Virus record (IMG/VR): IMGVR_UViG_3300018430_000021
Coordinates: 96,001 to 160,000 of that record
Reading direction: 5' to 3' (one strand)
Origin: a virus
Lineage: Duplodnaviria; Caudoviricetes
Length of the DNA stretch: 64,000 bases
The position numbers were made by a program, and so were the translations under genes. The notes below the pieces were generated by a model. The model saw only the letters and a list, made by a program, of their open reading frames with translations, was not told the origin of the DNA and did not search any database. Shown in pieces: positions 4,951 through 58,875 of the stretch; the stretch's first letter is position 1, and the number at the start of each line of letters is the position of its first letter.

Positions 4951-5436
4951 ATGGCAGAATATTTAAAAGAAGCACTTGAAATTCTCAAGGAAAACGGTTA
5001 TATTGTTGAAACTTTCAATACTATCGGCGATTCCGACAATGATATAGACGGTGACCGTTATGACGGAAGACCACTTAAAGTTACTGTCGGCGGCGAATAT
5101 ACTGGAACAGACTACGAAGATTGGATTGGTACAGTACGTGATGCTGTTTGGGATTGCTGCTGCGGCTACGATATTCCAGTTGAACAGTTCGACCAGTTCA
5201 TGGAAGAACATACCGGTGACATCGAAGACGCTTGGATTGTCAAGAAATGGCCTAAGGAATTCGGTAGATCCCTATTCAGCAAGTATTTCGACGAATTTGA
5301 TATTGCTGGTGAAGAACAAGAAAATTTTCAGCCGATTGAAGATGTAAAACCTGATAAGTTCCAACGTAACAAGAATAAATTTAACCGTAATTCTGGAAAG
5401 CGTTCACATCATAGCTTTGATGAATTTGATGATTAA
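4951..5436 (+). CDS. hypothetical acidic protein; candidate head-internal protein
   Basis: TATAAATA at 4928-4935; GAGG RBS; N-terminal EALEILKENGY tag. Confidence 0.7.
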   Translation: MAEYLKEALEILKENGYIVETFNTIGDSDNDIDGDRYDGRPLKVTVGGEYTGTDYEDWIGTVRDAVWDCCCGYDIPVEQFDQFMEEHTGDIEDAWIVKKWPKEFGRSLFSKYFDEFDIAGEEQENFQPIEDVKPDKFQRNKNKFNRNSGKRSHHSFDEFDD

Positions 5437-28345: not shown

Positions 28346-28774
28346 TTAGTCTAATAGATAAGAACGAGATTCTCCATCTTCGTCAACAACAGTAACAGTA
28401 CCGTCTGTGTTTTCACGGATGTACATACCGTCATCGAATTCATAAACTTTTTCGTTATTTTCGTCAATATATTGACCGATAACGGAGAAACTTTCCTTGA
28501 GCTTTCTCTTTTTCTTTTTCTTTTTCTTCTTAGGAATCTGGTTTAACCAGTATTGCGGGTGATGTGCACTCGGAACACCTGCGAAGAATGGGTTTACTGA
28601 AAATGGTGAACGATGGAAAAGAAGACCCATACGCTGTGGACAACAACCCTTACCGTCACCGCCATGCGGAATGCCTTGGTCTAAACCGCAAGGAGAACCG
28701 ACGCCGATACCGAAATCTTCGTCGAGAGTCACTCCGTTTTCTTTTAAAATTTCTAATGCTTCTTCAACTGTCAT
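28346..28774 (-). CDS. small protein with a copy of the major-capsid N-arm and a poly-Lys tract
   Basis: LDEDFGIGVGSPCGLDQGIPHGGDGKG versus MCP LTEDFTQGVGAPLGLDQGIPHGGDAKG. Confidence 0.75.
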   Translation of the reverse strand: MTVEEALEILKENGVTLDEDFGIGVGSPCGLDQGIPHGGDGKGCCPQRMGLLFHRSPFSVNPFFAGVPSAHHPQYWLNQIPKKKKKKKKRKLKESFSVIGQYIDENNEKVYEFDDGMYIRENTDGTVTVVDEDGESRSYLLD

Positions 28775-28776
28775 AA

Positions 28777-29238
28777 TTATGCCTTATTGATTTTTATACC
28801 GTATAACTTATTTATATTGTCGGCTTTTACTGCCCATTCCCCGGAATGTGCATATTTATCGTTATATAACAGTTTATTGAACTTATCAATGTCGCCTTCT
28901 TGATAATACCAAGCAGCTTGGTCGATTTGTTCTTTTGGAATTCCAGAAACCACTTCATAATGAAGCATTTCATGAATCATAGTCGAAATAAATGCCTTTC
29001 TGGTTCTTTTTCGGCTTTTAGAAATCTGAATCTTGTAATTTGATATAGTCTTTTTGTCTAAGTCTACATCATATTTCAAGTCACCGTTTAAGGTATTACT
29101 TTCTATGATTTCTATCGGTATTTCTGGGATTTTATTGTTAAAGAATAATCGGTTACACTCCAGAAATAGACTTGATGCTATCTCGTCGTTTATTTCAAAT
29201 TCCTGGACACTGAGACGTTTCTTGTTTGTATATTGCAT
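28777..29238 (-). CDS. SprT-like zinc metalloprotease domain protein
   Basis: NRLFFNNKIP...TMIHEMLH...HSGEW. Confidence 0.75.
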   Translation of the reverse strand: MQYTNKKRLSVQEFEINDEIASSLFLECNRLFFNNKIPEIPIEIIESNTLNGDLKYDVDLDKKTISNYKIQISKSRKRTRKAFISTMIHEMLHYEVVSGIPKEQIDQAAWYYQEGDIDKFNKLLYNDKYAHSGEWAVKADNINKLYGIKINKA

Positions 29239-29486: not shown

Positions 29487-30029
29487 TTAATGTTTCCTTA
29501 ATAAATCGTCTAGCTGTGAATTTATTTGACGGACGACGTATTGACGAGCTAGCATACTGGTGTTTGCAAGCTGGTTCTGAATACGCTGGTTGTTATAAAC
29601 GTTCTGAAGCCAAGTAATAGAAGAAAGATATGGAAGTTTTGGTTTTAACCATTCACGAAGCTTGAACATGAGAAGGTCAAGATTCGAGATACTGTCGTTT
29701 TCTTCTTTGGTAACTGGCTCACGAATAAGTGCACCGTTGCGGTCGATGAGGCCGAGCTTGTATGCTTTTGTCTTTCTAGGAATTGTAGTTATCGACTTGA
29801 GAAATACGAAAACCAGGATGTTATCGATATTCCTGTCATGCATTGATAAATTGATTTTCTTGCCACTGTTTTTAAGATTTCTCAGTGACATTGCAGCTTC
29901 GTTAAGTATTCCGTTAGCTTCGAAACCGCTCGCCAGCATATTCGCATTATTGACGAGACGACGTAAACCCTTCTGACCAGAAGGATCATCCAATGATTCG
30001 AAGAATCTTTCCCAGATTATTTTTTCCAT
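29487..30029 (-). CDS. hypothetical protein (KAYKLGLIDRNG motif)
   Basis: Late promoter at 30037-30044. Confidence 0.65.
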   Translation of the reverse strand: MEKIIWERFFESLDDPSGQKGLRRLVNNANMLASGFEANGILNEAAMSLRNLKNSGKKINLSMHDRNIDNILVFVFLKSITTIPRKTKAYKLGLIDRNGALIREPVTKEENDSISNLDLLMFKLREWLKPKLPYLSSITWLQNVYNNQRIQNQLANTSMLARQYVVRQINSQLDDLLRKH

Positions 30030-30053
30030 ACTACTATATTTATAACTCGAATT

Positions 30054-51054: not shown

Positions 51055-51202
51055 CCCTAAATATTCAAAAATATTAAGATTAATAAGGACCATTAATCAT
51101 ATGGTCCTTTTGTCTTTTTGCGAATTTTCCAATTTTTCAAGTATAAATAAAATATAAAAACGGTAAAAGTTTTTAAAAATCTAAACTATATTGGAGGATT
51201 CA

Positions 51203-52162
51203 ATGGAAAAATTTCTAACTAAGCTTTCCGGCGTTTGCTCAGCCGAGGACCTTAATGAAATCAAGCAGATTTTCGAGGCCGCGGTTGCTGAAAAGGTGGA
51301 AGCAGAAAAGGAAAAGATTGCCCAGGATCTCGCTAAGAAAGCCGATGAATTTTCACAGACAAAAATCAAAGAAGCCAAGGAACAGAATGCCGCTAAGGTA
51401 GAAGAAATGGCTAATGCTTGGTGTGCGGAACAGAAAGCACTTCTCGAAAAGGAAGCAAACGAAAAGGTTGAATCCTATAAGAAGAAGCTTGAAGACGCCT
51501 CCGAACAATATATCTTTGAATATTTTGAAAAGAAGTTCAAGGAAAAATACGGCGAAGAACTTGAAGCTCTCGAAGAAAAGGTTATTACTGGCCTTGACAA
51601 GTACCTCGAATATAATATCAATGAAAAGATTGACCCAAGCCTCATCAAGAAGCAGGCAATGACCGAAACCTACGCTCCTATCATTGATGGCATCAAGCGC
51701 CTCTTTGAAGAAGAGTATGTTCCGATGGATCTCTCTGGTTCCAAGAAGATTCGCGACATGAAGGCTGCAAATGCTGAACTCGAAGAATCCTTGAAGAAGC
51801 AGGTTTCCGAAAATATGCGTCTTGCTGAATTGGTTGAAATTTCCGGTAAGAAGTCTCTTATCGCTGAAAAGACTGCCAGCTTGAGCGTCGCAGAACGTGC
51901 AAAGGTTAAGAAGTTCTTCAAGGACAAGAGCCTCAATGAAACCAAGCGCGACATTGATCCTTATATCGAGATGGTTCAAGAACAGACAGAAAATTATGAA
52001 ACGGTCCGCCGTGAACGTGCTAAGCTCTTTGAGCAGCGTGAACGTCCGGTTCGCAAGTCTCGCTTTGTCGAAGACACTACTGCTGAAACATTGACTGAAC
52101 GTTTTAGAAAACAGGAACCTGAAGTTGATTCCACGACTGTCAGGGCTTCTCAGTTTTGCTAA
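51203..52162 (+). CDS. prohead core scaffold protein gp22
   Basis: IFEAAV...LDKYLEY coiled coil directly upstream of the MCP; GGAGG RBS before ATG 51203. Confidence 0.85.
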   Translation: MEKFLTKLSGVCSAEDLNEIKQIFEAAVAEKVEAEKEKIAQDLAKKADEFSQTKIKEAKEQNAAKVEEMANAWCAEQKALLEKEANEKVESYKKKLEDASEQYIFEYFEKKFKEKYGEELEALEEKVITGLDKYLEYNINEKIDPSLIKKQAMTETYAPIIDGIKRLFEEEYVPMDLSGSKKIRDMKAANAELEESLKKQVSENMRLAELVEISGKKSLIAEKTASLSVAERAKVKKFFKDKSLNETKRDIDPYIEMVQEQTENYETVRRERAKLFEQRERPVRKSRFVEDTTAETLTERFRKQEPEVDSTTVRASQFC

Positions 52163-52227: not shown

Positions 52228-53547
52228 ATGAAAGTTACACAATCACAAGCTACTATGGTAGATACTTGGGCCAAGGCACCGGGCGGACTTTCCGTTGCTG
52301 GTATCAAGGACTCCCTTGTACGTTATAATACCGCACGTCTTCTCGAAAACCAGAAGACTAAGAATCTCGGTGCAGAACTTCTCACTGAAGATTTCACTCA
52401 GGGTGTAGGTGCTCCGCTTGGTCTCGACCAGGGTATTCCTCACGGTGGTGATGCTAAGGGCGTTTTCGCTCCGATTTCTCTCGCACTCGTCCGTCGTGTG
52501 TTCCCGCAGCTCTTCGCTAACGTTCTCGTTGGTGTTCAGCCGTTGATTGGTCCTGTCGGTCTTGCATTCGCACTCCGTTACATTTATAAGACAAATAACC
52601 CGAACGAACTCGTTGAAGCCGCATGGAAGGCAGTTCCTCGCTTCTCTGGTTATACCGGTTCTACCGCTAATACCAGTGGCGAATGGGATGCTGGTACCGG
52701 CGTTGACACTCAGTCCGCTGAAGGTTGGAAGATCACTGGCCCGACTTTTGGTTCTGATGACCCGTCTGTAAGCCGTAAGATGCCGGAAATCGGCCTTATG
52801 CTCAGCCGTCAGTCCATCGTTGCTAAGAGCCGTAAGCTCGCTGCTTCCTTCTCTCTTGAATCTGCTGCCGACATTAAGGCTATGCAGGGTATCGAAATGA
52901 TGACTGAAATGATTAACGTCCTCCAGGCTGAAATGACTGCTGAAATGGACCGTGAAACTATCGGTCGTTGTAAGGCTCTTTGCACACCGCGCGTGTTCAA
53001 CAAGTCTACAAAGACTCTTCAGGAAAACGATGCATTCATCGGCCGTAACTCCCAGGAACGTTTCGGTATGATTATTACCCACATCATGAAGGGTGTAAAC
53101 GACATCCGTACTGCTACTCGTCGTGGCGCTGCTAACATTGCAGTTGTTTCCCCGGACGTTGCTACTGTTCTTCAGTGCGCTAATCCTTGGTTCACCAAGA
53201 TTGCTCACGAAGTTAACGGTTCTGCTGTTACTCCGGAAATGGGTACTTTGAACGGTGTTGTTAAGGTCTTCTGTGACCAGTACGCTGTTGACGAATTCGG
53301 TCAGCACGATAACGGTGAAGTTCTCCTCGCATACAAGGGCTCTAGCCTCTATGATGCTGGTGTTATCTTCTGCCCGTACGTAACCGGTGTTGTCAACCAG
53401 GCTATTGACCCGAATGACTTCAGCCCTCGCGTTGGTATTATGAGCCGCTACGGCTTTGCTCATAATATGTTGGGCGCTGAAAACTACTACCGTCTCTTGA
53501 AGTTCAACGGCCTCTTCGCAGAAGCTGGTGAAGACCTCGAATGGTAA
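52228..53547 (+). CDS. major capsid protein gp23
   Basis: LLENQ, LVRRVFP...GVQP, AKSRKL, CPYV and F.PR.G.MSRYG motifs. Confidence 0.96.
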   Translation: MKVTQSQATMVDTWAKAPGGLSVAGIKDSLVRYNTARLLENQKTKNLGAELLTEDFTQGVGAPLGLDQGIPHGGDAKGVFAPISLALVRRVFPQLFANVLVGVQPLIGPVGLAFALRYIYKTNNPNELVEAAWKAVPRFSGYTGSTANTSGEWDAGTGVDTQSAEGWKITGPTFGSDDPSVSRKMPEIGLMLSRQSIVAKSRKLAASFSLESAADIKAMQGIEMMTEMINVLQAEMTAEMDRETIGRCKALCTPRVFNKSTKTLQENDAFIGRNSQERFGMIITHIMKGVNDIRTATRRGAANIAVVSPDVATVLQCANPWFTKIAHEVNGSAVTPEMGTLNGVVKVFCDQYAVDEFGQHDNGEVLLAYKGSSLYDAGVIFCPYVTGVVNQAIDPNDFSPRVGIMSRYGFAHNMLGAENYYRLLKFNGLFAEAGEDLEW

Positions 53548-54476: not shown

Positions 54477-55043
54477 TTAGTGAAGAGCCATACCTTCGCC
54501 AGCGAACATTGCATTTGAAATGGTGAAAAGTGCATTAGTTTCAGTTTTACACTTCTTCATACGAATTGCAAACTTATTGTAATATTCAGGACTTACACCC
54601 TTGCCGATACATTCACGGACTTCTTCAAGGAATTCTGCGATTGCAGCCTGAAGACCGACCTTGGCAGAAAGAGTTAAGAAATATGCGTTATTAAGATACT
54701 TTTCGCAAATGCTTGTGAAGAGTGTACCTTCAGCAGTACCGAATCCTTCTTTGATTACTTTAAAACCGGCTTTTTCAGCAACTTCTTTAGCTTCTTCGAG
54801 TTTAGCCCAAGGCGGAACCTTGTCATCACCCTTTTTGCCTTCGTTGAGTTTAGCCCAAGGCGGAACCTTATCACCGTCTTTCTTACCTTCGTTGAGTTTG
54901 GCCCAAGGTGGAACCTTGTCTCCGTCCTTTTTGCCTTCATCGAGCTTAGCCCAAGGTGGAACCTTGTCATTGCCGCCTTTCTTGGTTCTAGCAACAGTAA
55001 ATCCATGTTCTTCGGCAATCTGTTTAGCTTCAAATAAGTTCAT
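54477..55043 (-). CDS. repeat-containing protein; candidate head-internal peptide precursor
   Basis: Four DKVPPWAKLxE repeats; AGGAG RBS. Confidence 0.75.
   Translation of the reverse strand: MNLFEAKQIAEEHGFTVARTKKGGNDKVPPWAKLDEGKKDGDKVPPWAKLNEGKKDGDKVPPWAKLNEGKKGDDKVPPWAKLEEAKEVAEKAGFKVIKEGFGTAEGTLFTSICEKYLNNAYFLTLSAKVGLQAAIAEFLEEVRECIGKGVSPEYYNKFAIRMKKCKTETNALFTISNAMFAGEGMALH
54792..54968 (-). repeat. 48-bp (16-aa) coding tandem repeat, about 3.7 copies
   Basis: gcccaagg(c/t)ggaacctt recurs every 48 nt, with third-position variation. Confidence 0.9.
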
Positions 55044-58091: not shown

Positions 58092-58206
58092 TTTAAATCC
58101 CTTTTTATGATTTTATATATTATTTATAAGGCAAATCCGCATTAAAATCTTCGGAAAAATTGTAAAAATTCTATAAATATAGTAAACAACATTGGAGATT
58201 TTAATT

Positions 58207-58875
58207 ATGGAAGCAAAAAAGCTATTGTGCGAAGAAGCTTGCGCCGAAGCAAAATCAGTGCTTGAAGACGCTGGCAATAATATGAAGACTATGTATATCA
58301 GTGGTCCGTTCATGATGGCTGAAGAAGTAAACCGTAACGGTCGTACTTATTCTAAGGCAATTATTGAACGTGAAGTTAACAAGTTCCAGAAGCTCATCGA
58401 ATCCCGTGAAGCTCTTGGAGAATTGAACCATCCTGAGACAATCGAAATTAACCCTCGTGAAGCTGCAATTATGATTACAGACCTTCACATGGACGGAAAC
58501 CTCGCAATGGGTAAGGCAAAGGTTTTGCATACTCCAAACGGTAAGCTCCTTGAATCCCTTTTGCTCGACGGTGTTCGTATGGGTGTTTCTTCTCGTGGTA
58601 CCGGTAATTTGACAGAAGGCAATATGGTTGCAGACGACTATAATCTCGTAACTATCGACTCTGTTTATATGCCATCCGCTCAGGTCGCTTATACTGACGC
58701 AATGTACGAATCTGTACAGTACGTTTCTAAGTGGGTTCTTAATGAAAATACTGGACTTTTCATTGAACAGCGTGAAAAGATTATCAACGGTCAGAAGGCT
58801 TTCAATAAGGAAGTCGATAAGAAGGGTTCTAAGGCCATTGTAGAAGCTCTTAGAGAGTTCATTAAGACATTCTAA
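58207..58875 (+). CDS. prohead core protease gp21
   Basis: ISGPFMMAEEVNRNGRTY, ALGELNHP, TPNG and GVSSRGTG motifs; GGAG RBS before ATG 58207. Confidence 0.95.
   Translation: MEAKKLLCEEACAEAKSVLEDAGNNMKTMYISGPFMMAEEVNRNGRTYSKAIIEREVNKFQKLIESREALGELNHPETIEINPREAAIMITDLHMDGNLAMGKAKVLHTPNGKLLESLLLDGVRMGVSSRGTGNLTEGNMVADDYNLVTIDSVYMPSAQVAYTDAMYESVQYVSKWVLNENTGLFIEQREKIINGQKAFNKEVDKKGSKAIVEALREFIKTF

Follow-up and report, generated by a model that had tools for sequence, protein, structure and literature searches.

A small protein of a T4-like phage group carries an old, selected copy of the predicted mature N-terminus of the phage's major capsid protein and resembles T4 gp61.1

The major capsid protein of phage T4, gp23, is cut by the prohead protease gp21 after E65 (PMC7136217). 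The mature protein, gp23*, begins with an N-fist of 25-26 residues (66-91) that touches four subunits, two in its own capsomer and two in the adjacent one, contributes to the Soc site, and is disordered where a neighbouring capsomer is absent (PMC9958956, PMC7136217). In T4 structures there is no neighbouring capsomer around the portal (PMC7136217). Before expansion, the N-terminal region of gp23 is internal, disordered in the prohead and probably placed against the scaffold core, and its contacts with the core affect head length. The fist is externalised on expansion and lies on the outer surface of the mature capsid (PMC9546572).

Two other groups of T4 proteins are relevant here. The internal proteins (IPs) IPI, IPII, IPIII and Alt are brought to the core by a capsid targeting sequence and are processed by gp21 (PMC9026906). 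Gene 61.1 was described as a conserved ORF with no function identified (PMC1524935), and gp61.1 is not among the T4 head proteins in a review table (PMC9026906). Its function has had no assignment since annotation of the T4 genome. In the literature searched, we found no functional report on gp61.1 and no report of extra density in T4 capsid maps.

The window analyzed here is a stretch of 64,000 nucleotides from a 291-kb virus record with an estimated completeness of 70%. It contains a small ORF (28346-28774, minus strand, 142 aa) and a set of T4-type head genes. The features needed for the comparison are the following.

28346..28774, minus strand: small ORF, predicted precursor of a fist-polylysine peptide, recognized by BLASTP to the major capsid protein (MCP) and by purifying selection across relatives
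28777-29238, minus strand: SprT-like ORF directly upstream of the small gene, with a sub-threshold Pfam match (zinc metalloprotease fold) and an HExxH motif
51191..52162, plus strand: acidic scaffold protein resembling gp22, with numerous [LI]xE sites, its gene immediately preceding that of the MCP; assigned by sequence matches and composition
52228..53547, plus strand: MCP, gp23 family, 439 aa, propeptide of residues 1-54 ending in LTE (52381-52389); Pfam Gp23 and phrog_138
52390..52467, plus strand: MCP N-fist equivalent, residues 55-80, at the same position and of the same length as T4 gp23* 66-91; from the alignment to T4 gp23
58192..58875, plus strand: prohead protease, T4 gp21 family; Pfam Peptidase_S77 (PF03420), E 4e-34, match at ~58240-58701

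The Pfam Gp23 match of the MCP starts at residue 80, phrog_138 spans nearly the whole protein, and identity to cyanomyovirus gp23 proteins is 34% at best. The other neighbours of the small ORF are ORFs without a Pfam or PHROG function.

Residues 17-43 of the small protein matched residues 52-78 of the MCP in BLASTP, with 21 of 27 positions identical, no gaps and an E value of 2e-12 for this single comparison. This match had been claimed in a sequence-only reading of the window, between 28646-28726 and 52381-52461, and both the identity and the coordinates proved correct. The match starts at LDE in the small protein and at LTE in the MCP, where that reading expected a gp21-type protease to cut. 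In the alignment to the PDB-set T4 gp23 and in the T4 sequence, the MCP LTE (residues 52-54) falls on the LTE of T4 gp23, that is, on the site after E65. Because residues 55-80 of the MCP are equivalent to the T4 fist, the small protein copies the three residues of the cleavage site together with essentially the whole fist. Over the 27 matching codons, DNA identity is just 66-69%, and the differences are largely in third positions. The resemblance to the MCP extends over about 27-35 aa only, upstream of the Pfam region of the MCP. The small ORF does not belong to PF07068 (the gp23/gp24 family), having no HK97-fold body that matches the Pfam model. There was no Pfam match and no PHROG match for the small protein or for ten diverse relatives.

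Some other ORFs show partial resemblance to capsid proteins. The 70%-complete genome record, in which PF07068 at E <= 0.01 gives the MCP alone, yielded no gp24-like vertex paralogue, and in complete relatives there were just weak partial matches. In one complete 416-kb relative (record G004, 148-150 kb), two ORFs of 219 and 223 aa (L119:1032-1691 and L119:2159-2830, both plus strand) resemble the C-terminal half of the MCP, with weak PF07068 matches. They are interleaved with ORFs that, by eye, have cysteine-rich motifs resembling those of radical-SAM activases. A separate counterpart of these MCP-half ORFs was not found in the window's 70%-complete record. Two further non-MCP ORFs, of 385 aa (G014:5614-5727) and 223 aa (G008:50550-50669), have weak Pfam Gp23 matches (E ~1e-3) to the start of the model (40-50 positions), corresponding to the N-arm segment that immediately follows the fist.

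The small protein can be divided into six parts, all encoded on the minus strand.

28718..28774, minus strand: acidic leader (pI 4.05) of residues 1-19, with a helix predicted at residues 3-12, ending in LDE (28718-28726), the predicted first protease site
28640..28717, minus strand: MCP N-fist copy, residues 20-45, with the strong MCP match reaching residue 43; columns invariant in alignments
28532..28639, minus strand: linker of residues 46-81, rich in Pro, aromatic residues and His and strongly conserved in clade 1 (defined below), pN 0.03-0.21
28502..28531, minus strand: polybasic run, residues 82-91 (8 K, R, K)
28493..28501, minus strand: LKE, residues 92-94, predicted second protease site
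28349..28492, minus strand: acidic C-extension (pI 4.05) of residues 95-142, for which AF2 predicts a beta domain of five strands (pLDDT ~85)

The polybasic tail and the LKE that had been described for this protein are both present, with a run one lysine longer than had been stated. The two predicted sites delimit residues 20-94, exactly the peptide of about 75 aa that had been proposed. The predicted peptide has a mass of 8.3 kDa and a pI of 10.0, with 14 K+R against 4 D+E. The predicted C-terminal piece after the second cut has 48 aa and a pI of 4.05, and the C-extension is probably a C-terminal propeptide. An AF2 model made with the family alignment has a short leader helix and the beta domain of the C-extension but no confident fold in the module, where the fist has a pLDDT below 50. 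The low value suggests that the fist has no fold of its own, as would be expected for a segment that becomes ordered only on a partner. The precursor model had no fold match in the PDB at E <= 0.001 (Foldseek), and a search of the ESM Atlas gave no usable match for the small protein. Polo-box-like entries among the Foldseek rows from the PDB (E >= 0.03) were weak and were treated as noise.

The gene has its own match to the T4-type late promoter motif.

28809..28816, minus strand: TATAAATA, a late promoter motif of the T4 type, located within the 3' end of the SprT-like ORF, 34 nt before the ATG of the small gene

In most clade-1 relatives TATAAATA is found at -37 to -42, a spacing that resembles that of the MCP gene. 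The prohead protease gene is likewise preceded by TATAAATA, at 58172-58179. There were 43 occurrences of TATAAATA in the 64-kb window, compared to 9 expected, mostly just upstream of ORF starts and on the coding strand. T4-type late transcription appears, from the placement of the motif, to be conserved in this distant group of ~420-kb phages.

We identified relatives of the small protein in several ways. A protein search gave 54 relatives, and a profile of the module, searched against 1.8 billion representatives, gave 79 clusters (50% identity). A locus search with the single small protein gave no matches, and an alignment-based scan of IMG/VR gave 69 loci, a mix of small proteins and MCPs. 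In INPHARED, neither tblastn nor megablast gave a match to the small ORF or its region. We refer below to three clades: clade 1 is that of the window, clade 2 comprises records G014 and G015, and clade 3 is one 248-kb record with both genes.

At least 77 distinct relatives share one plan, consisting of a variable leader, [LIVM]xE, the fist copy, a linker and a polybasic run, after which the protein either ends or continues with a second [LIVM]xE and an unrelated C-extension. In these 77 small proteins the leaders vary from 5 to ~138 aa and the linkers from ~16 to 43 aa. All 77 have [LIVM]xE before the fist. The basic run, too, is present in all 77; in the large proteins of clade 3 it is weak or missing. 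Of the 48 distinct sequences that have a C-extension of at least 13 aa, 44 have a second [LIVM]xE no more than 12 aa beyond the basic run. Conservation of the second site spans several unrelated types of C-extension, and that of the first site spans unrelated leaders. In alignments, the fist hardly varies, unlike the leaders and C-termini. The minimal members (57-78 aa) have little beyond the site, the fist, a short linker and the basic run.

The large proteins of clade 3 (P0095-P0099, 354-515 aa; L102:1311-2858) are organized differently. In these, the site and fist module heads a much larger protein, and a Lys/Glu-rich stretch replaces the clean lysine run. One of them has a weak DnaJ-type CxxCxGxG match, and their genes are near gp15-like and baseplate genes.

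We compared synonymous and nonsynonymous changes (Nei-Gojobori counts on the fist codons, eight genomes) between the small copy and the MCP of the same genome. In all eight, pS was saturated (0.58-1.0) and pN was 0.11-0.23. Recent gene conversion between the small gene and the MCP copy was rejected on the saturated synonymous sites. Among orthologous small genes, the fist and linker had the lowest pN/pS and the leader and C-extension had higher values. The fist values of about 0.05-0.2 across relatives indicate purifying selection. Because pS is saturated with low pN and conservation is wide, with the gene present in every sufficiently complete relative, chance resemblance and a recent or unselected duplication missing from relatives are excluded. 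By these comparisons the shared segment is a real, old and selected gene family, and the capsid N-arm copy that had been claimed is indeed an old, selected copy of the post-cleavage N-terminus of the MCP.

Every genome searched had exactly one small gene and an MCP gene, including two relatives whose sequences are complete and have terminal repeats (415,750 and 424,163 bp). The idea that the fist is a general recognition element for the protease was rejected, because there are only two copies of it per genome and the T4 IPs are cut without a fist (PMC9026906).

The small protein was found to co-vary with the MCP across related phages, the relationship by which the sequence-only reading had proposed to judge the match. 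There are three lineages with different fist variants, and in each the small protein has the variant of its own MCP. In clade 3, for example, both proteins have Asn and Pro in place of two Asp residues that are invariant elsewhere. Over 30 residues, the small protein is identical to its own MCP at 25 positions in clades 2 and 3, compared to 16-22 for small proteins of other clades. When the pairings were shuffled in the window's group, the observed pairing sum was reached in 408 of 100,000 shuffles; in six T4-likes (T4, 44RR, RB43, Ac42, Miro and S16), the true pairing had the top identity sum of all 720 permutations. In both comparisons, shared ancestry was handled by permuting the pairings only. 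That the fist copy is kept matched to its own MCP suggests that it binds whatever the fist of the MCP itself binds.

T4 gp61.1 has a similar layout. It has 54 aa, and its leader (MKTFKEFIKE) is nearly identical to the capsid targeting sequence of the IPs (MKTYQEFIAE). Residues 2-38 of gp61.1 match residues 57-93 of T4 gp23 at 17 of 37 positions (E 6e-9), with I-K-E of the leader falling on L-T-E of gp23. After the fist there is a Q-I-P-lysine motif, as in the window family, followed by an acidic tail. An alignment of gp61.1 to the module profile by hhalign covered the Q-I-P-lysine motif alone (E 0.003), and the window protein and three relatives had no match to the gp61.1 PHROGs (phrog_1823 and phrog_2086) at E <= 1. 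A missing PHROG match is expected if the sole long conserved stretch copies a different MCP.

A second connection comes from the long forms of gp61.1. The proteins of RB43, Miro, Ac42 and S16 carry an N-domain of ~105 aa (phrog_2086) fused ahead of the module, and a homologue of this domain is encoded near the small ORF.

29487..30029, minus strand: 180-aa ORF homologous to the N-domain of long gp61.1, two genes upstream of the small ORF, with TATAAATA at 30037-30044

This ORF matches positions 5-85 of the phrog_2086 profile (E 6e-7), and BLASTP E values range from 9e-9 to 4e-5 (9e-9 for RB43, 1e-7 for Ac42). In the relatives L003 and L120, ORFs of similar size stand in the same order relative to the small ORF. 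T4 gp61.2 was considered as a counterpart of the 180-aa ORF and rejected (BLASTP E 54, different PHROG). Because the direct profile similarity is limited to the Q-I-P-lysine motif, the assignment to gp61.1 rests on the architecture together with this linked N-domain. The architecture itself ([LIVM]xE, a copy of the phage's own MCP fist, a basic run) is present in the window protein, in T4 and in five other genera. Unlike T4 61.1, the small ORF is not flanked by the helicase (41) and primase (61) genes. By tblastn, there were gp61.1 relatives in 1,389 phage records, and the family is found also in ordinary T4-likes of 160-180 kb. Some gp61.1 homologues are labelled 'major capsid protein' in their records (KT001919, Miro; MW388001, Minot; MW021756, SemperBestia), presumably because of the fist copy.

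The N-terminal motif of the small ORF (M..EA..L...G-aromatic) recurs on other ORFs, often with [LI]xE within a few residues. Two of these are in the window, with TATAAATA ~23-25 nt upstream of both, and the others lie at genome positions outside it.

4951-5436, plus strand: ORF with the recurrent N-terminal motif
54477-55043, minus strand: ORF with the recurrent N-terminal motif
200637-201440, 264601-265323, 227339-227728 and 87660-88721 (genome positions), all minus strand: ORFs with the recurrent N-terminal motif

The 'tag' that had been described as preceding the match is therefore a motif that recurs N-terminally on several ORFs of the same genome. It is absent from family members with leaders of 5-11 aa. 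Because T4 gp61.1 shares its leader with the T4 IPs, the ORFs with this motif could, by analogy, be internal proteins of the window phage.

We propose that the small ORF encodes a late head precursor, a counterpart of gp61.1, that is processed by the prohead protease and presents a free MCP N-fist. This is the reading that we prefer, and we put its chance a little below even. The small ORF would be the counterpart, in the window's phage group, of T4 gene 61.1, and its late-expressed precursor would enter the prohead. The gp21-type protease would cut the precursor after LDE (residue 19) and after LKE (residue 94), removing two acidic propeptides that until then would mask the basic core. The 75-aa basic peptide so released would have an MCP-type N-fist at its new N-terminus and the lysine run at its C-terminus. 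The fist copy would most likely bind the fist-acceptor surfaces of neighbouring MCP subunits, and the basic tail would hold DNA or, earlier, the acidic scaffold before its degradation. We infer the cleavage of the precursor, and the presence in the head, the copy number and the binding partner of the peptide, from sequence comparisons. The structural proposal of the sequence-only reading, a released peptide with a capsid N-arm at one end and a polybasic tail at the other, is supported to the extent that such comparisons allow.

A more specific form of this proposal is that an orphan N-fist, present from T4 to the 420-kb relatives, fills acceptor sites that the lattice cannot fill, at the portal vertex or next to the pentons, while its basic tail anchors DNA or the core. 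We regard this form as unlikely, though it has a basis in the T4 structures: because there is no neighbouring capsomer at the portal, acceptor sites there could be unfilled. There is also a difficulty for the proposal as a whole, by analogy to T4. The mature T4 fist is external, and the peptide would be made inside, so that it would need either to reach the outside together with the arms of the MCP or to use another binding site on the inside. Further points against the proposal are that T4 61.1 has no TATAAATA in the ~130 nt upstream of it, that gp61.1 is missing from the review table of T4 head proteins (PMC9026906), and that the direct profile similarity of the window protein to gp61.1 is so limited.

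The alternative that survives best, which is plausible without being likely, is that the fist is a prohead-entry module that docks on the internal scaffold or protease, after which the protein would be a plain polybasic internal protein with an idle fist. The state of the N-terminal region of T4 gp23 before expansion, internal, disordered and thought to touch the core (PMC9546572), would suit such docking, as would the basic character of the T4 IPs and their co-purification with gp22 (PMC9026906). In the window family, moreover, the leaders can be as short as 5-11 aa and are mutually unrelated, and the fist is constant; in clade 3 it heads proteins of 220-515 aa that could be cargo. However, T4 gp61.1 already has a canonical targeting leader of the IP type. 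Ten leader residues suffice for targeting in T4 (PMC9026906), which would make the fist redundant there, and yet it is conserved and co-varying. Because T4 gp61.1 has this separate leader, the fist is probably not merely for entry, and we rank the presentation of a surrogate fist above the entry module.

It is also conceivable, but improbable, that the peptide or its precursor is an assembly regulator that competes for acceptor sites or for the protease, and in this way times cleavage and expansion or limits growth of the lattice in a very large head. Its cleavage context is the same as that of the MCP, the gene is single-copy and conserved in phages of 416-424 kb, and in T4 the head length is affected by the contacts that the gp23 N-terminal region makes with the core (PMC9546572). 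The presence of the family in ordinary T4-likes of 160-180 kb argues that it is not tied to giant heads, and a competitor would have no obvious need for a universal basic tail.

Some host systems are triggered by parts of T4-like capsid proteins, such as Lit with the Gol peptide of gp23, and CapRel. A decoy for a host defence that senses the N-terminal region of the MCP would be suited by a copy that tracks the MCP. This is very improbable for the small protein, as the late promoter motif, the flanking protease sites, the basic tail and the IP-type leader in T4 all point to the head interior, and the Gol region lies just beyond the copied segment. That the small ORF is a non-functional remnant of a partial MCP duplication has a negligible chance: the resemblance is confined to about 27-35 aa, as it would be in a remnant, but pN is far below pS, synonymous sites are saturated, and there are 79 clusters, one copy per genome and a promoter motif of its own.

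We return to the reading that we prefer, a precursor that is processed to a peptide presenting a free fist. If it holds, a tiny ORF of more than 1,300 sequenced T4-likes acts in head assembly or in the capsid. If the orphan-fist form of it were true, the peptide would be a structural part, so far overlooked, of a virus capsid that ranks among the most thoroughly studied. Because T4 61.1 has the same layout, and T4 genetics, proteomics and near-atomic capsid maps exist, the idea is directly testable. The family also provides a rule for annotation, namely to look for small ORFs that combine [LIVM]xE with a basic run and a copy of the N-terminus of the phage's own MCP. We found no description, in the literature searched, of a co-evolving imitation of a processed MCP N-terminus.

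Other known systems share some of the properties of the small protein. The adenovirus proteins pre-Mu (pX) and pVII give rise to polybasic, DNA-associated peptides that are freed from precursors by the virion protease. They belong to another virus lineage, depend on another protease, and have no capsid-protein mimicry. The DarA-Hdf proteins of phage P1 are internal head proteins located on the inner capsid surface at penton-hexon junctions, where they touch DNA (PMC12810830). They offer a precedent for linking the shell to DNA, but they are large folded proteins, unrelated in sequence and without MCP mimicry.

The T4 IPs are closer. Like the predicted peptide, they are small and basic when mature, and the protease removes from them a propeptide ending in L/I-x-E, which in the window protein is a predicted site. 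Alt is trimmed at both ends (PMC9026906), as predicted for the window protein. In contrast, the T4 IPs are not conserved in sequence among T4-likes (PMC9026906), none has a copy of the MCP N-terminus, and the leader of the window protein is unrelated to the T4 targeting sequence (MKTYQEFIAE type). The N-fist of T4 gp23* has the same length of ~26 residues and the same place directly after the maturation site as the fist of the small protein, which differs in being detached from an HK97-fold body.

The closest system is T4 gp61.1. The fists of the two proteins cannot be aligned, as each copies a different MCP. The lysine run of the window form is longer than that of gp61.1, and the protein also contains a conserved linker of 36 aa, a second motif for cleavage and an acidic extension at the C-terminus; its gene has its own late promoter motif, whereas T4 61.1 has no TATAAATA within about 130 nt upstream. 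The two have in common a leader ending in [LIVM]xE, a copy of the N-fist of their own MCP, a Gly-Pro / Q-I-P motif and a basic run.
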